The notes beneath the pieces were generated by a model that was not told where the DNA came from, searched no databases, and was given only the letters and a program-made list of their open reading frames with translations. The position numbers were made by a program, and so were the translations under genes. Of a stretch of DNA of 64,000 bases, positions 3,006 through 26,028 are shown piece after piece (positions within the stretch are counted from its first letter, which is position 1; each line of letters opens with the position of its first letter). Where the stretch lies: NCBI RefSeq assembly GCF_056746865.1, contig NZ_JBWKMP010000003.1; one strand, given 5' to 3'. Origin of the DNA: a plasmid.

Positions 3006-4043
3006 TTACCAGAGTTTTGCCGCGTACATCGTTTGTGTGAATGTGTACCCATAGCGTTCTTCAACGCTTTTACCGTATTTTTTCCTGGCTTCAGTAAGGC
3101 GGATGCCTGTCAGGTCATCGCCGGAGGCAATCATAACTTCCAGTAGTTCCAGGTCCATTTTATCCAGCCTTGCCATTGCATCTTTAGCCTCTTGAATTTT
3201 CCGGCTAACGATCTGGTGTATGGCTGGATCGGCTTCGGCCAGCATTTTATCTGATTTGTTTTTTAAACTCTGATTGCGGATATCAATGTTTCTCAGGATA
3301 TATGACTTCACGACGTAGCTTGGCTGCTGCTTTTCCAGATCACGAACCCGATAAAGGTCAAATTCGCCGAGAAGTCCGCACGGAAGCGGTTTAATGCCAG
3401 TGTAAATGGTAAGGGTGCGGCGCTCACCAACGTTGTTAACAACGGGAATCTCTGTGTTTGCTTTTTTTGCAAAGATCAGCGCACCGTGCGTACCCACTCT
3501 GAAGCGTGAAAGTCCATTGTTGCCCTCAATATTGGTGGTAATCACCACATCGGTATAACCTTCTTTTCTTGCGCGGTATACCTCGCCCTCACGTTCAGCG
3601 GCGAAGAATCTGCGTTCTTCTTCAAGCGCACCGACAACCTGTGAAAATATCCTGTTTTTCATGCTTTTCTTTATAGTTTTATCGTATTTTTTCAGCAGGT
3701 CTTCGCGCGTAAATGTTCTCGTTGTGGTTGCGCTTTGCATAACGATGTGCGTACTCTGATTAGTATCCTCAACAATGAATGGGATCGGTAAATAAACCGA
3801 CTCAACAATGTTTGAGGCTTTGTCATCATCCTTGCGACACAGATCAACAAAGGCTTTCCATTCGGCTATGCATTTTTCAGCTTCTTCTAATACAGCCGGA
3901 TCATGTGTTAATGCAACATGGCGAAATTCCTCGCCAACATAACTGGTATCATGGAAAACAGAGTTTGCGACCACCAGCTCTTTCCACCTTTCAGCGGTTT
4001 GCAGGAACCGTTTGTACTCATTCTCGATCGACTTCTTACTCAT
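3006..4043 (-). CDS. hypothetical protein in the c1 immunity-repressor slot
   Basis: Start taken at the internal ATG (plus 4041-4043) with AGGAA Shine-Dalgarno; operator-like motifs lie just upstream; position between pacB and rox/dre matches P1 c1; no recognised domain. Confidence 0.5.
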   Translation of the reverse strand: MSKKSIENEYKRFLQTAERWKELVVANSVFHDTSYVGEEFRHVALTHDPAVLEEAEKCIAEWKAFVDLCRKDDDKASNIVESVYLPIPFIVEDTNQSTHIVMQSATTTRTFTREDLLKKYDKTIKKSMKNRIFSQVVGALEEERRFFAAEREGEVYRARKEGYTDVVITTNIEGNNGLSRFRVGTHGALIFAKKANTEIPVVNNVGERRTLTIYTGIKPLPCGLLGEFDLYRVRDLEKQQPSYVVKSYILRNIDIRNQSLKNKSDKMLAEADPAIHQIVSRKIQEAKDAMARLDKMDLELLEVMIASGDDLTGIRLTEARKKYGKSVEERYGYTFTQTMYAAKLW

Positions 4044-4060
4044 TATTCCTACTCGATTTA

Positions 4061-4157
4061 GTTTTCTAACATAAAAGTCCTGTGACAAATTTATGCTGAA
4101 TAACAAGGTGAGTAAAGGATAAAACCGCTTTTTTTTGATTGTTCCTATTAGAAAATG
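4061..4157. promoter_or_regulatory. two operator-like motifs upstream of the immunity-slot gene
   Basis: GTTTTCTAACA at 4061-4071 and ATTAGAAAATG at 4147-4157; same motif family as the palindromes at 24565 and 35913. Confidence 0.4.
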
Positions 4158-4239
4158 TAACCAGGAGCGGCTACCGCATGGCTGACGGATTTGCGAAGTG
4201 ATCTGGTCGGTGTTTTTTTGGGAAAAAAGTTCCGATTTC

Positions 4240-4271
4240 TAACTTTAAATAATTGGCATTATTTAAAGTTA
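4240..4271. other. rox recombination site (Dre target)
   Basis: TAACTTTAAATAAT-TGGC-ATTATTTAAAGTTA: perfect 14-bp inverted arms around a 4-bp asymmetric spacer; its reverse complement matches the rox site as I recall it; 152 bp upstream of dre. Confidence 0.85.
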
Positions 4272-4423
4272 GGCTATAATCTCCAGTAAACAGGCAGTAT
4301 TGACAAGGATGAAAAATCATGCCTCGAATCAAAGGCTTGAATTTTGAAAATTAACTTATAACTACCCTGTCAGTTTTCTATTTTTCACGTAGCGTTATCT
4401 GTATATAGAGGTTTAATAGTTTC

Positions 4424-5452
4424 ATGGGTGAACTAGTTATCTCCGGCGGTTCTGGTGGTTTTCTGCGCGATATTGGCACCGAATACCAGGAAGCTGCAAA
4501 AAACTTTATGCAGTTCATGAACGACCAGGGAGCTTATGCTCCAAATACGCTTCGAGATCTCCGTCTGGTGTTTCATTCCTGGGCGCGGTGGTGTAATTCG
4601 CGCCAGCGCCCCTGGTTCCCGATTACGCCGGAAATGGCCCGCGAGTATCTTCTCCAGTTGCATGAGGCCGATCTGGCCTCGACCACCATTGATAAGCACT
4701 ATGCCATGCTTAACATGCTGCTTTCGCAATGTGGCCTCCCGCCGCTGTCGGACGATAAAAGTGTGTCTCTGGCCATGCGGCGCATCCGGCGCGAAGCGGC
4801 AACGGAAAAAGGCGAGCGAACAGGCCAGGCTATACCGTTGCGGTGGGATGATCTGAAATTGCTCGACGTGTTGCTGTCCCGTTCCGAGCGGCTGGTGGAC
4901 CTGCGCAATCGGGCGTTTCTCTTCGTGGCATACAATACCCTGATGCGTATGTCAGAAATCTCGCGCATCCGCGTCGGAGATCTGGACCAAACAGGTGACA
5001 CTGTAACGCTGCATATTTCACACACGAAGACCATCACGACCGCCGCCGGACTTGATAAGGTGCTTTCTCGTTACACTACCGCCGTACTGAACGACTGGCT
5101 GGAGGTGTCCGGACTTCGAGAACATCCGGACGCGGTGCTATTCCCGCCAATACACCGCAGTAATAAGGCCAGAATCACGACAACGCCCCTTACTGCACCT
5201 GCAATGGAGAAAATATTCAGCGATGCCTGGGGGTTGCTGAACAAACGAGATGCCACGCCGAACAAAGGAAGATACCGGACGTGGACAGGCCATAGTGCGC
5301 GTGTTGGTGCGGCAATTGATATGGCTGAGAAACAGGTGTCAATGGTCGAGATCATGCAGGAAGGTACATGGAAAAAGCCCGAAACACTTATGCGATATTT
5401 GCGCCGTAGCGGGGCATCCGTTGGTGCAAATAGTCGCCTGATGGACTCATAA
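4424..5452 (+). CDS. dre: Cre-family tyrosine recombinase Dre
   Basis: 342 aa, colinear with Cre from the N-terminus; RHR and catalytic-Tyr region present (TGHSARVGAA..LMRYLR); paired with the rox site. Confidence 0.85.
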   Translation: MGELVISGGSGGFLRDIGTEYQEAAKNFMQFMNDQGAYAPNTLRDLRLVFHSWARWCNSRQRPWFPITPEMAREYLLQLHEADLASTTIDKHYAMLNMLLSQCGLPPLSDDKSVSLAMRRIRREAATEKGERTGQAIPLRWDDLKLLDVLLSRSERLVDLRNRAFLFVAYNTLMRMSEISRIRVGDLDQTGDTVTLHISHTKTITTAAGLDKVLSRYTTAVLNDWLEVSGLREHPDAVLFPPIHRSNKARITTTPLTAPAMEKIFSDAWGLLNKRDATPNKGRYRTWTGHSARVGAAIDMAEKQVSMVEIMQEGTWKKPETLMRYLRRSGASVGANSRLMDS

Positions 5453-5498
5453 ATTAATTTTCTAACAACCTTTTTAGACAGTGCATTTTAATGTAAAG

Positions 5499-5527
5499 TA
5501 CCCTCGCCTATTGCGGAGGGTACTTTG
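5499..5527 (+). terminator. intrinsic terminator after dre
   Basis: GTACCCTCGCC-tatt-GCGGAGGGTAC hairpin followed by TTTG. Confidence 0.5.
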
Positions 5528-5629
5528 CACAATCGTATTACGGAATCAAAACGCTTCACTGTTGACGGTTACACCATAACCTTCACTGCGGGCGTTAAGC
5601 GCGACCAGGCGGTCGTGGTGTTCGGTGTT

Positions 5630-5869: not shown

Positions 5870-6354
5870 AAACTTACTACCCATCCCTGAACTGTTATCC
5901 AACCACTAATCCTGAGCTGTCAGGGAAACTTCTGTCCCTCCTGGCTGATAGTCCTGATGAATGGCATAAGCCTGGTGATATCAACACACAGTTCCCTGAG
6001 TACGGGTGTATCCGCACCCGAAATGAGCTGAAGAACCTCATTGCTCACGGTTTTGTCCGTCACCGTAGCGGGAAAGGCTATCAGTTGGCTATCCCACAAG
6101 GAGAGGCAAGAGAACTCTTTGGCTATCGAGAAAGCCAGACGCAAGCGCGGGTGATCGCAGAAATTATCCGTAATGGCAGCGTCTATGCCCGCAAATTCTG
6201 GCTGTCTGGCGGTGGTGATGCATCACAGTTCTTGCGTGCTGTGCGATCGCTGGAGGAACAAGGTGTTATCGAGAATACCTGCGTCTCCGTTCCGACCGCT
6301 CCGCATATCAAACGCCGGATTTATACATTTACCCGGAGAGCTAAAAAGCAATGA
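5866..6354 (+). CDS. hypothetical protein
   Basis: ATG with AAGGGGG Shine-Dalgarno; stop overlaps the dut ATG (ATGA). Confidence 0.5.
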   Translation: MKTYYPSLNCYPTTNPELSGKLLSLLADSPDEWHKPGDINTQFPEYGCIRTRNELKNLIAHGFVRHRSGKGYQLAIPQGEARELFGYRESQTQARVIAEIIRNGSVYARKFWLSGGGDASQFLRAVRSLEEQGVIENTCVSVPTAPHIKRRIYTFTRRAKKQ

Positions 6355-6845
6355 TTAACGTGAAAGTGAAACGCCTTCATCCGGCGGCAAAACTCCCCGT
6401 TTACGCCACCGCCGGATCGGCGGCGATGGATTTTGTTGCTGTTGAAATAACGCCGGGTATCGATAGCAACGGCGCTATTTCCTCAAGCTGGTGGGTGCAT
6501 ACCGGCCTCGCTATGGCGATCCCTCCTGGCTGGTGTCTGAAACTTTATCCTCGTTCCGGATTGGGCTGCAAAAAGCATACGCGCCTGGCTAACTGCGTAG
6601 GAATTATCGACTCCGATTATCGCGGTGAAATCAAAGCAAAACTGATTACAGATCCCGGTGGTGAAGGCGTTTGCCTCAAGCCAGGAATGGCGGTCATGCA
6701 AGGCATTTTTGAGCGTGTTGAACCGGTATCGCTGGTAGAAGTTGATGAACTCGATGAAACAGAGCGAGGTGCTGGTGGCTTTGGTAGCACATCGGAAGAC
6801 CGCATTGAAATCAAGCGTACACCGCTTCAGTACGCAAAGTTTTAA
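6351..6845 (+). CDS. dut: dUTP diphosphatase
   Basis: Trimeric dUTPase motifs: AGSAAMDF, YPRSGLG, GIIDSDYRGE, RGAGGFGSTS. Confidence 0.85.
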   Translation: MINVKVKRLHPAAKLPVYATAGSAAMDFVAVEITPGIDSNGAISSSWWVHTGLAMAIPPGWCLKLYPRSGLGCKKHTRLANCVGIIDSDYRGEIKAKLITDPGGEGVCLKPGMAVMQGIFERVEPVSLVEVDELDETERGAGGFGSTSEDRIEIKRTPLQYAKF

Positions 6846-7516: not shown

Positions 7517-8323
7517 GTGGAAAATACCAAGAACATTCAATATCGCTTGCGTAACGGCCTGCTGGTGGATGTAAACGATGATATGTCCCTGCCCTTTGCC
7601 ACCATTGAGCGAACCATCCTTACATACCTGGGCTTAGACGAAGAGTTAGATAGTGAGAATGGCATTGCTATCTGGCGTGACGGAAAAACGGGAGTCAGAC
7701 GTTTTATTACGGCAAGAGGCATTCAGTGCACACAGGAAGAATTGTTTGAACTGGCGCAGTCTTATGGATGCATCGCGTTAGATCCCCTGTATGACCCAGC
7801 CATAGCACAACAACTCATTCGAGAGCTGTCGCTTTCGGTCACGCCAATAATCTTCCGCCAGGGAACCTTAACCGGCACATGGCGTGTAGAACGCATCTCT
7901 AAATATCAGCCATATAATATCCATTTGAACGGCACTATTACTGGTGTGGATCAACCAGTAGCAGGTGAAAACAAAGACCTGGAACTTGCAGTAATGATGG
8001 CAGCTTGTCGCGTGCTTGGCCTGGGCAAGCAGATGTTTATCCATTTCCCAAACGGCGCGGAAGGCGAAGTAGAGCTGATTTCCTGCGACTTTTCCTTAAC
8101 CTGGATGCTTGATGAATTCCTGGACAAAACAGTATTCCGTGCTGAAGAACTGGATATGTATGTCACCTCAAGTATTCCTAATGACGTGAAAGTTGAGGCC
8201 ATCGCTACAGCCAGGGCGAAATGCCGTGCGGCGATTGCAGAACAGGCCAAAGAAGAACAGTCCGATGAAGTCGCGGCAGATGTGGAGGCAGAGGTAGCGG
8301 AGGATGCTGATGCTGACGCCTAA
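7517..8323 (+). CDS. hypothetical protein with acidic C-terminal tail
   Basis: GTG start with GGAG Shine-Dalgarno; 268 aa; ends in an Asp/Glu/Ala-rich tail. Confidence 0.45.
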   Translation: MENTKNIQYRLRNGLLVDVNDDMSLPFATIERTILTYLGLDEELDSENGIAIWRDGKTGVRRFITARGIQCTQEELFELAQSYGCIALDPLYDPAIAQQLIRELSLSVTPIIFRQGTLTGTWRVERISKYQPYNIHLNGTITGVDQPVAGENKDLELAVMMAACRVLGLGKQMFIHFPNGAEGEVELISCDFSLTWMLDEFLDKTVFRAEELDMYVTSSIPNDVKVEAIATARAKCRAAIAEQAKEEQSDEVAADVEAEVAEDADADA

Positions 8324-9410
8324 AAACATCACCGAATTACCAGAGTGGAGAGAGCTGGTAAGCAAATATAGCCATGACTGGGCATTAGCAGCAGAAGAGT
8401 TGATGGGTGTTAAGTTAACCCACCAGCAAAAGCTAATTGTTGAGGCGATTCAACAAAAAGGTTCAGCAGTCAGCGTCACCACTCCTGAAGGGATAGGCCA
8501 AAAGACGGTTATCGCTATAATTAGTATTCTTTATACAATCCTGATGCCTGAGTCTAAAACGGTTATTGTTTCCCCAAAGTTCTATAATTGTCGCAGGCAA
8601 GTTATCCAATACATAAGTACGTATTGGGATAGAGTCAGTAACAGAATCCCATTGCTGGGAGAATATTTTAAAGTCGACGGAAACGGCATCAATCATCGTT
8701 ACCGGGAATATTGGGGCTGCGAAATTAAGCCATATCACCGAAATTATGAGGAAGGTTTCGGTGGATATTATGCTGAACATCTTTTAATCATTGTTACGGA
8801 GGCGGCTCTTGCTGGCGATCGGCTATTCAGCATGTTAAGAGCATCGTTAGTAAGTGACGATTCACGTATACTTTTAATGTCCGCTCCTTCAGAGGAGGAG
8901 CATGGACACTTTTACGATTCCCATCATGGTCGTGCAAAATCAGAAGAAAATCCATGTGGTATTTATACAGCCATCAAGCTGAACGCAGAAGATACCCCCA
9001 TTATTTCACAAGGTTATCTTGATAACATTGCAGAAATATATGGTGGTAAAAACAGCGATTACTACCGTCGCATGATTCTTGGTGAGTTTCCAGGTATTAG
9101 GGAGGCTGTTCTTGAATCAGATATGCCGAAAACAATGCGCTTTTCGATGCCTGATGGTAGTGAATGGATAATGCCATTACGAGTGATAGCCCGGCATCAT
9201 GCACAGCACCACGCCAAAAAACATGGCGTTACAACATTGGAGTGGTTGAAATCGCACACCATTCCACTCTTCACTGCAGATCACAATGCTATCGTTGAGT
9301 GGGCAAAAACAATTCCGTGGGAGAATGTCGCTGAATACGCCCACATGCTAAAACCGCCGAAAGACAGGCAAGAAATTAGCTGGCTGACAGCAGAAAAAAT
9401 CATTGAGTGA
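8304..9410 (+). CDS. terminase-large-subunit ATPase-domain paralog with degenerate Walker motifs
   Basis: Clear similarity to the 1460-2968 ATPase domain (THQQKLIVEAIQ.. vs SHQQQQIIQSVQ..; FYDSHHGRAKSEENP vs FYESHHSRAKAEGNP), but Walker A reads TTPEGIGQKT and Walker B IVTEAA; no nuclease-domain counterpart. Confidence 0.6.
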   Translation: MLMLTPKNITELPEWRELVSKYSHDWALAAEELMGVKLTHQQKLIVEAIQQKGSAVSVTTPEGIGQKTVIAIISILYTILMPESKTVIVSPKFYNCRRQVIQYISTYWDRVSNRIPLLGEYFKVDGNGINHRYREYWGCEIKPYHRNYEEGFGGYYAEHLLIIVTEAALAGDRLFSMLRASLVSDDSRILLMSAPSEEEHGHFYDSHHGRAKSEENPCGIYTAIKLNAEDTPIISQGYLDNIAEIYGGKNSDYYRRMILGEFPGIREAVLESDMPKTMRFSMPDGSEWIMPLRVIARHHAQHHAKKHGVTTLEWLKSHTIPLFTADHNAIVEWAKTIPWENVAEYAHMLKPPKDRQEISWLTAEKIIE

Positions 9411-9447: not shown

Positions 9448-9826
9448 AAATATTGGAACCATATAGTTCACGTAGTTTATCCGCTACTGAAGATACGGGG
9501 ATTTCACCAGTTGCAGCCCCCACCGCAAGTTCCACCAGCACGGGAGAATCATATACCTGTATACCGTTACGGCGTAGAAATAGCAGCGCACTGTTTAGCG
9601 CGGTACGCTTATTGGCATCATTGAATATATGCCCTCTCGCTGTAGCCACCAGGTAGGTGGCGGAGACTTCGAAAAGGTCGGTGATCTCTTCGTAGGCAAC
9701 TCTGGCCTGAACTCTCCCGATAATGGCCTCTGCCCTGCCCGGATCTGACATGCCAGGCAGGCCGCCGTAGCGGCTTATATTCGCATCATGAAGCGCAATA
9801 AGTTCTTCCGGTGATATATGCCTCAT
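9446..9826 (-). CDS. doc: Doc toxin (Fic/Doc family kinase)
   Basis: 126 aa; Fic motif HIFNDANKR; close match to P1 Doc as recalled; overlaps the phd stop. Confidence 0.9.
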
Positions 9827-10047
9827 TATCGGTTAACCAGTTCCTTGTTGGTGGAGTCCAGGGTGTCAAACAGGGATGCAAATTCAGCATCCAGCGCCGC
9901 TTTTTTGTAGGCTTCGAAAGTAGCCTTGCTGACAATTACTGCTGGCTCACGGCCTCTGCGGGTGATTTCAACCTCTTCCCCGGCTTCAACATTGTTGAGC
10001 ACTTCAGAAAGGTTGCCACGCGCGGTACGGAAGTTAATGGATTGCAT
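9826..10047 (-). CDS. phd: Phd antitoxin
   Basis: [32 protein letters not shown]...; start taken at the second ATG of the track ORF. Confidence 0.85.
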
Positions 10048-10119
10048 AAACACCTCGTGTACTCGTTATGTGTACACAATTATAAACTTCACAGGCATAA
10101 AGCACCAGCACTTTGCAGC

Positions 10120-10509
10120 TTAAATAACCGGACAATCATCAAATTCCCCACTTCGGGCATCATTGATGACATGAGTGATCACACCAAAAACAGCATTACT
10201 GCCCGTGTATCCATCGTCATCTACTGGTAACGCCTCTTTCTTCCCGGTGCTTAAGTCCTCCAGGTGCTGGCGCGGATACTTCCTGTATCTCTTTATGCGA
10301 TATTCACCCTCCATAGCGCACACAAGCAGAGAACCATCAACCGGAGTAAGCGAGGAATCAACCACCAGCAAAGCACCCTGCAATATTCCCTCACGGTGAT
10401 GGCTATCAGCTGCCCGCATGAAGTAGGTCGCTGAAGGATGTCTAATTATCTGCTGATCAAGAGAAATTCGGCTTTCAACATAATCCGCCGCAGGAGAAGG
10501 GAAGCCCAT
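10120..10509 (-). CDS. humD: UmuD'-like SOS mutagenesis protein HumD
   Basis: 129 aa; S24-peptidase/UmuD-like core (..RAADSH...LLVVDSS..RIKRY..); same neighbourhood as humD in P1. Confidence 0.75.
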   Translation of the reverse strand: MGFPSPAADYVESRISLDQQIIRHPSATYFMRAADSHHREGILQGALLVVDSSLTPVDGSLLVCAMEGEYRIKRYRKYPRQHLEDLSTGKKEALPVDDDGYTGSNAVFGVITHVINDARSGEFDDCPVI

Positions 10510-10632
10510 AGCGTTTTACCTCAATGATACTGTTTATTCATACAGTATACATTGAAAAGGCATAGTTTGTGAAAGCGGGGTTTGTAGGCGCGCCACGCTG
10601 GGGGCTAATCACATTTCTCCCCCATCTTGCCG

Positions 10633-11834: not shown

Positions 11835-12187
11835 TTCTTTTCACATTCCTTAGTCCATTTTTCAATGTTCATTTTGGCAATATCAGTCATTCCATCACCT
11901 AAGAAATACTTTTTCCGGTATGTCTTGCACTTAAACCACACTACAACAGCCACCAGCCAGAAAATAAAAGGCCATACAGCAATACCAACGACAGCCGCGA
12001 TAAAGCCCAATAGCCATAAATGAAGCTCTCCAACTTCTGTTTCCGGCAATATTCTTAAAGAATTAAACAGCAGGCTGAACGAATGGTCGTATGCATTGGC
12101 GGTATAAGACATGCAATCCATATAATTAAAGTCATAGCCTGCGGCTGCCGCCCATAATGGGCGGTCAAGAAAATGTTTTAGTGTCAT
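11816..12187 (-). CDS. putative membrane protein
   Basis: Two strongly hydrophobic segments (LWLLGFIAAVVGIAVWPFIFWLVAVVVWF); short overlap with the downstream gene. Confidence 0.4.
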   Translation of the reverse strand: MTLKHFLDRPLWAAAAGYDFNYMDCMSYTANAYDHSFSLLFNSLRILPETEVGELHLWLLGFIAAVVGIAVWPFIFWLVAVVVWFKCKTYRKKYFLGDGMTDIAKMNIEKWTKECEKKWRKKK

Positions 12188-25715: not shown

Positions 25716-25818
25716 GAAAACACACAGTTGCGCCCTGGCATTATCGTGGGGTATATTTCTACGGCACCTTAGAAAAACGGGTGCCGGGATTGGAACCCCG
25801 GATAATGTCAAAGGCGAC

Positions 25819-25846
25819 ACAGACGCCGAACGCGTCTTTTTTTGTG
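25819..25846 (+). terminator. hairpin with T-run between target site 1 and the c4-like RNA
   Basis: AGACGC-cgaac-GCGTCT followed by TTTTTTGTG; short stem. Confidence 0.35.
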
Positions 25847-25892
25847 TCATGCCATCGCACAGCCATACTTAGCGTTTAGCTCAGAGATCAAT

Positions 25893-25972
25893 GGTAGTGC
25901 TGGCTGGGCTGCCGAAAGGCAGGCCGGTTCCCTTTGACGCCGGTAGTTCCAACCCAGTCAGTGCTACCGCCA
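25893..25972 (+). ncRNA. c4-like antisense regulatory RNA (immI-type)
   Basis: About 80 nt; acceptor-like stem GGTAGTGC / GTGCTACC followed by G-CCA; internal GNRA hairpin CTGCC-gaaa-GGCAG; single-stranded CCCTTTGAC and GTTCCAACC complementary to sites at 25787-25814 and 25975-26020. Confidence 0.4.
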
Positions 25973-26028
25973 TTGAGATTGGAACCTCACGCGGTAGCTC
26001 CTTAACTTAGTCAAAGGAGGCTGCCAAT

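Follow-up and report, generated by a model that had tools for sequence, protein, structure and literature searches.

A Dre/rox recombination module in a D6-like plasmid-prophage of Escherichia, with a predicted dre promoter overlapping rox

The window, a 64,000-nucleotide (64-kb) stretch of plasmid DNA, contains the gene order pacA-pacB-c1-rox-dre-orf-orf-dut, which is identical to that of phage D6. The terminase genes pacA (96–1460, + strand) and pacB (1460–2968, + strand) are open reading frames with a colinear 79% nucleotide match to pacA/pacB of D6, and they are located upstream of the recombination module as they are in D6 and P1. They are followed by a divergent gene on the − strand (3006–4043), which lies left of rox and encodes a c1-like prophage repressor of 345 aa counted from its ATG. 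The product of this gene matches PHROG 1678 over its full length with an E value of 6e-159, and the gene is syntenic with c1 of D6. A match to the NCBIfam family phage_rep_C1 is distant and lies below the cut-off. The C1 proteins of the window and of D6 share 80% amino acid identity. The recombination site rox (4240–4271) and the recombinase gene dre (4424–5452, + strand) come next. The gene dut (6351–6845) is located after dre and two small open reading frames, as in D6. The whole c1-dre-dut region shows about 81% nucleotide identity to D6.

The sequence-only reading had described a 32-bp palindrome with a TGGC centre, 152 bp upstream of an open reading frame for a 342-aa Cre-family protein. 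This description is accurate: the site occupies positions 4240–4271, the gap to the ATG of dre positions 4272–4423 and the reading frame positions 4424–5452. The site, to which no strand is assigned, consists of the left arm TAACTTTAAATAAT (4240–4253), the spacer TGGC (4254–4257) and the right arm ATTATTTAAAGTTA (4258–4271). The spacer is asymmetric and reads TGGC on the dre strand. One additional base pairs at either end of the site in the window, so that the perfect inverted repeat has 15-nt arms and occupies 4239–4272. The 32-mer TAACTTTAAATAATTGGCATTATTTAAAGTTA is present in a single copy in the 64-kb window when up to three mismatches are tolerated, and none is expected by chance according to shuffled sequence. 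No second rox or pseudo-rox with up to three mismatches over the full site was found in the 64-kb window. The only other arm-like match in the window, at position 12186, has two mismatches and is at chance level.

The wild-type rox site has been published as 5′-TAACTTTAAATAATGCCAATTATTTAAAGTTA-3′ (PMC4777119), and the site in the window is its exact reverse complement. On the dre-coding strand it is identical to the misc_recomb feature 4909–4940 of the D6 immC record AY753669, which is labelled 'region of crossover (rox) site for Dre recombinase'. A rox target is defined by an asymmetric 4-bp GCCA/TGGC between 14-bp inverted repeats of TAACTTTAAATAAT, and the sequence at 4240–4271 agrees with this definition exactly. 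The palindrome had been named as the rox site of the Dre recombinase of phage D6, and the comparison with the published sequence and with the GenBank annotation confirms this identity. The reverse-complement orientation that had been noted is correct with respect to the printed sequence; it reflects a printing convention and is not a real difference, as the ATG of dre follows rox at the same distance of 152 bp in D6, with the site in the same orientation as in the window. The spacer was correctly given as 4 bp in rox and 8 bp in loxP, the sites being of the types 14-4-14 and 13-8-13, respectively. The statement that the arms match loxP at 10 of 13 positions depends on the register. It agrees with the literature, where rox and loxP are said to have three differences among the 13 bp of a half-site (PMC7438526), and this count is made in a register shifted by one base. 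If the 13-bp loxP arm is compared strictly with the rox arm plus its flanking base, both arms of the window match at 9 of 13 positions, and 10 of 13 is reached only by the left arm of D6.

The 32-bp site is 100% conserved between the window and D6, while the adjacent dre genes share 87% nucleotide identity with a dS of 0.70 and a dN/dS of 0.04. By simple arithmetic, the probability that 32 neutral positions would all survive at a pS of 0.46 is of the order of 1e-9. Recent common ancestry alone therefore cannot explain the unchanged site. The dN/dS value indicates that dre itself is under strong purifying selection.

The dre gene encodes a 342-aa tyrosine recombinase of the Cre family, which is an ortholog of Dre. 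Its product is identical to D6 Dre (AAV84949) at 322 of 342 positions (94%), with the same length and no gaps, and shares 41% identity with P1 Cre. An identity of likewise 41% has been reported for Dre and Cre (PMC7438526). Alignment to both proteins, which had been suggested as a check, thus places the recombinase far closer to Dre than to Cre. It also falls into the same 90% cluster as the Dre proteins of D6 type. The best PDB matches of the protein are Cre structures (E 4e-72, aligned over Cre residues 21–340), and its Pfam domains are PF02899 (SAM-like N-terminal) and PF00589 (catalytic phage-integrase). All catalytic residues are present, namely R175, E178, K202, H290, R293, W316 and Y325; R175, H290, R293, W316 and Y325 are the catalytic residues given for Dre in PMC4777119. 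The protein therefore has the R-E-K-H-R-W set with the tyrosine nucleophile and the two-domain architecture of the Cre subgroup. The selectivity of Cre is switched from loxP to rox by the exchanges K43R, R259P and G263K (PMC7438526). The Dre protein of the window carries R44, P259 and K263, which is the Dre state. A chromosome dimer resolvase of the XerC/XerD type was also considered and rejected, the scores being 31 and 23 bits against NCBIfam equivalog cut-offs of 335 and 330, respectively.

Fifteen of the 20 substitutions that separate the protein from D6 Dre are located within residues 1–102, and none of the 20 affects a catalytic or rox-specificity position. One of them, H102Q, aligns with R101 of Cre, a residue located near the DNA backbone. 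These substitutions, H102Q in particular, might be taken to mean that the recombinase has shifted in specificity or has become inactive and that the rox palindrome is kept for another reason, the more so as the target specificity of a recombinase in this family reportedly does not follow from its sequence in a straightforward way (PMC10250229). We regard this as very unlikely. The site is unchanged at a synonymous divergence of 0.70, the dN/dS of dre is 0.04, and the catalytic residues as well as the three known specificity residues are all kept. Furthermore, the exact protein (UPI0003917F37, named 'tyrosine-type recombinase/integrase') is found on 584 contigs, and a perfect rox site is always present in the lineage of the window (L006–L010). 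The D6 Dre protein recombines rox and not loxP (PMC7438526; for Dre/rox see also PMC4777119). From the identity of 94% we infer that the Dre protein of the window would have the same activity, acting on pairs of rox sites and not on loxP.

Comparison of the window with the D6 genome aligned 48,253 of the 64,000 bases (75%) in 11 large colinear blocks with 73–91% identity and a mean of about 81%. Only 6,362 bases (10%) could be aligned to P1, mostly in the phd/doc/humD block. The proposal that the element is D6-like rather than P1-like thus holds at the scale of the window, with the qualification that it is a relative of D6 and not D6 itself. Phage D6 itself, in the sense of the same species with a genome identity of about 95% or higher, is ruled out, as the 75% of the window that can be aligned has a mean identity of 81%. 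The D6-like phage-plasmids of the P1g2 group are characterized by genome-wide colinearity to D6 rather than to P1, and the window shows this feature. Elements of the D6 type were designated P1g2, a sister group of the P1-like phage-plasmids, by Pfeifer and Rocha (PMC10879196, PMC11165635). About 16 plasmids of 89–95 kb from E. coli and E. marmotae share 99% identity with the window. Of the 157 occurrences of the rox-dre region in complete genomes of E. coli, plasmids of about 90 kb account for 152 and chromosomes for five. The five chromosomal matches could stem from D6-like elements that have been integrated or assembled into the chromosome. In the representative plasmid NZ_CP104667 no rox feature is annotated, and dre carries the generic name 'tyrosine-type recombinase/integrase'.

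A candidate pac site was found at 461–547 (no strand assigned), inside pacA and about 3.7 kb from rox. It consists of the octamer GGGATCAT, which includes a Dam GATC sequence and is repeated four times as two inverted pairs within 87 bp; four of the five copies of the octamer in the window are located there. No cluster of the P1-type pac hexamers TGATCA/G was found in pacA of the window, where the cluster of GATC-containing octamers was found instead. By analogy with P1, it is plausible that this cluster is the pac cleavage and recognition region. Several further features were noted in the window. The region from 8 to 18 kb is poorly covered by D6. It contains a 368-aa open reading frame (8304–9410, + strand) that matches PHROG 5902, a family of unknown function, over its full length. 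The N-terminal half of its product shows a weak likeness to the ATPase of terminase large subunits (phrog_2, E 1.6e-10), and the protein looks like a PacB-like paralogue. The doc/phd/humD block (9456–10562) is 94.5% identical to P1, although an alignment to P1 is obtained for no more than 10% of the window. This suggests that the addiction/SOS module has been exchanged recently between the P1 and D6 lineages. Two Rfam matches above the gathering score, the isrK Hfq-binding RNA (25764–25842, + strand) and the C4 antisense RNA (25887–25974, + strand), represent the immI region, which confers immunity and is typically present in phages of the P1 and D6 types.

That dre is a phage integrase inserting the element at a chromosomal attB, and not the resolvase and cyclase of a plasmid-prophage, could be argued from the Pfam Phage_integrase domain, the PHROG term 'integrase', the RefSeq GO term 'DNA integration' and the five chromosomal matches among the 157, but it is scarcely credible given that the other 152 lie on plasmids of about 90 kb, that a simple inverted repeat of the 14-4-14 type, without arm-type sites, serves as the target, that the closest characterised proteins, Dre and Cre, use identical partner sites, and that the element has the plasmid-prophage functions phd/doc and immI C4 RNA.

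We therefore consider it very likely that a D6-like plasmid-prophage (phage-plasmid) of Escherichia carries an intact Dre/rox recombination module at this locus, with P1-type roles in cyclization and dimer resolution that are assigned by analogy. In the Cre/loxP system one monomer occupies each arm, two sites are brought into synapsis, and the strands are exchanged via a Holliday junction without accessory proteins. In P1, Cre/lox turns the terminally redundant DNA into circles on infection and also resolves dimers of the plasmid. Following the Cre/loxP model and published work on Dre/rox (PMC4777119, PMC7438526), one Dre monomer would bind each 14-bp arm of rox, two rox sites would synapse, and the strands would be exchanged across the central region via a Holliday junction, again without accessory factors. 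Infecting linear DNA with rox in its terminal redundancy would be circularised by Dre, and plasmid dimers would be resolved to monomers, so that the low-copy prophage would segregate faithfully. The resolution of multimers in P1 is also cited in PMC10879196. The roles in cyclization and dimer resolution are established for P1 Cre/lox, and no report of them for D6 or its relatives was found in the literature searched, which did not include the original Dre and D6 genome papers. By analogy, the biological roles of Dre would be those of Cre in P1.

The site also overlaps a putative promoter. A predicted sigma-70 promoter reading into dre (4253–4280, + strand) is composed of the −35 hexamer TTGGCA (4253–4258), a 16-bp spacer and the −10 hexamer TATAAT (4275–4280). 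With 11 of 12 positions matching the consensus, it is the best sigma-70 match in the region 3950–5600. The predicted −35 overlaps the rox spacer and the inner bases of the arms, the 16-bp promoter spacer consists mostly of the right arm, and the predicted −10 starts four bases past the right arm. The promoter was surveyed in the window, in D6 and in 35 of the 36 IMG/VR loci encoding Dre relatives; locus L039, the upstream end of which is cut off, was left out. The same promoter position was top-scoring in 35 of the 37 loci, which are all 35 loci with a Dre identity of at least 69%. In the two most distant loci, with a Dre identity of 55–56%, the match is TTTACA-16-TATAAT, and its −10 falls within the left arm of the site belonging to each locus. 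In the alignment of the relatives the TATAAT hexamer is an island of identity amid diverged flanks. In P1, the annotated promoter P4cre is located immediately left of lox and reads through it, and no promoter-like match with the −35 inside loxP was found. Nothing relevant on promoter activity of rox was found in full-text literature searches, which did not extend to the original Dre, D6 genome and P1 genome papers. Judged from the sequence, dre is probably transcribed from this promoter with its −35 in the rox core. Dre bound at rox would occlude the predicted promoter, and autorepression of dre is thus a reasonable prediction. In that case Dre acting on rox would repress its own synthesis.

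The promoter is followed by the dre leader (4281–4423, + strand) of 143 nt, in which several blocks are kept even in relatives with a protein identity of no more than 55%. The blocks shared across lineages include TCAAAGGCTTG, CTACCCTGTCA, CGTAGCG and TATAGAGG. The distance from rox to the ATG is 151–153 bp throughout the relatives, even at 55% protein identity. No significant RNA structure was detected in the 143-nt leader (z +0.87), and no Rfam family matched it. A conserved block left of rox, TTAGAAAA, has no further copies in the window that would mark it as a dispersed operator motif. At the other end of the gene, a hairpin formed by GTACCCTC and GAGGGTAC (5499–5524) lies just past the dre stop codon and overlaps the start of the next open reading frame (5525). 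A weak terminator may be formed by this hairpin, although its short T-run kept the scan for terminators from calling it.

Natural variants of rox occur among the relatives. One of them is an asymmetric site with an A9G change, which has the left arm TAACTTTAGATAAT and a canonical right arm and precedes the Dre start by about 184 bp. It is found in the loci L011, L016, L020, L026, L028, L030, L031, L034 and L035. The variant is tied mainly to one type of left flank, on the c1 side, and in L011 it stands beside a Dre protein identical to D6 Dre. Dre has been reported to tolerate several half-site mismatches (PMC10250229), which fits the persistence of the A9G sites. Other changes affect the spacer. 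Locus L038, with a Dre identity of 69%, has the spacer TAGC; L036 has the spacer TGGA together with an A-to-G change in the inner arm; and L021, represented by a single contig, has the spacer GGGG, which is possibly a sequencing error. The loci L040 and L041, with Dre identities of 55–56%, carry a 14-6-14 site, ATAACTTTATATAA-TGTCAG-TTATATAAAGTTAT, the arm triplet of which, TAT, is intermediate between TAA of rox and CGT of loxP. The sites of L036, L038, L040, L041 and L021 all lie about 151–153 bp upstream of the recombinase ATG. The changes in the variant arms are located in the triplet that separates rox (TAA) from loxP (CGT).

The rox site also marks a junction between differently related sequences, as seen from the identities of the 150 bp on each side. 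Locus L011 and D6 (L001) are 54% identical left of rox and 95% identical right of it. Loci L034 and L011 share 95% on the left and 72% on the right, and L034 and L035 share 35% on the left and 99% on the right. For the window and D6 the values are 42% and 82%, respectively. In the comparisons of L011 with D6, of L034 with L011 and of L034 with L035 the similarity switches inside the 32-bp site. The identities of C1 and Dre are incongruent among the relatives, matching the discordance of the left and right flanks. Breakpoints inside rox are expected if the site serves as a natural crossover point. Exchange at rox between co-resident relatives may thus yield a mosaic of the immunity (c1) side and the dre side. 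It is also possible that the mosaic arose from homologous recombination anchored on the conserved rox.

Since a near-consensus promoter overlaps rox and the neighbouring −10 is conserved along with it, the palindrome might be assigned a purely transcriptional function, either as a promoter or operator of dre or as a bidirectional terminator between c1 and dre, with no role in recombination in this element. We consider such an exclusive assignment highly improbable. In many published systems Dre needs no more than these 32 bp as its substrate. A promoter needs only its hexamers, yet all 28 arm positions are conserved, and the mosaic breakpoints of the relatives fall within rox. It fails, however, only as an exclusive explanation, as regulatory and recombination roles are compatible. 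The Dre/rox recombination module may be extended to include both. In this extension rox would serve as the crossover site and as the −35 of the dre promoter, the occupancy of the site by Dre would make the Dre dose self-limiting, this arrangement would be a conserved design of the Dre clade, Dre-mediated exchange at rox would shuffle the c1 and dre sides, and variant sites would be tolerated or co-evolving. We put this proposal forward tentatively, and its chance of being correct as a whole seems to us somewhat below even.

Dre/rox is already a standard genome-engineering tool alongside Cre/loxP, and its presence here is no discovery. The results nevertheless type an unannotated family of Escherichia plasmids of about 90 kb as D6-like phage-plasmids, and they mark a rox site that public records leave unannotated. 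The natural Dre variant, with 20 substitutions and the same site, and the rox variants could inform the engineering of specificity and of heterospecific sites. Both the overlap with the promoter and the mosaic pattern add a little that can be tested. If true, the overlap of rox with the promoter hints at how the phage keeps recombinase levels low. It also matters to users who place rox in bacterial constructs, as rox together with a downstream −10-like sequence may fire transcription.

The pair described here is an uncharacterised member of a thoroughly known system, located in a relative of D6 rather than in D6. With Dre/rox of D6 (AY753669, MF356679) it shares the 32-bp rox, its orientation, the distance of 152 bp, the gene order and the catalytic and specificity residues. 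It differs from D6 in the sequence left of rox, which is unrelated in the window (42% over 150 bp). With Cre/loxP of P1 (NC_005856) it has in common the fold family, the catalytic residues and the presumed biological roles. In both systems the site lies immediately upstream of the recombinase gene and beside c1, at a distance of about 4 kb from pac (a candidate site in the window), and a promoter at or beside the site, predicted in the window, feeds the recombinase gene, the P1 counterpart being P4cre left of lox. The pac site of P1 is also located inside pacA and contains hexamers with GATC, 4.0 kb from lox, but the octamers of the window differ from them in sequence. The pair shows neither the Cre-level identity nor the 13-8-13 site that define Cre/loxP of P1: loxP is of the type 13-8-13 and rox of the window 14-4-14, with a further difference between their arms at the CGT/TAA triplet. 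Furthermore, P1 contains cra between lox and cre as well as coi and imcAB between c1 and lox, neither of which is found in the window. Dre/rox and Cre/loxP are reported not to cross-recombine (PMC7438526). Vika/vox, Panto/pox, Nigri/nox, VCre, SCre and the YR series likewise combine a Cre-like recombinase with a lox-like inverted repeat nearby on a phage or plasmid (PMC4957104, PMC3553980, PMC3082901, PMC10250229), but their proteins are much more distant and their sites are different.
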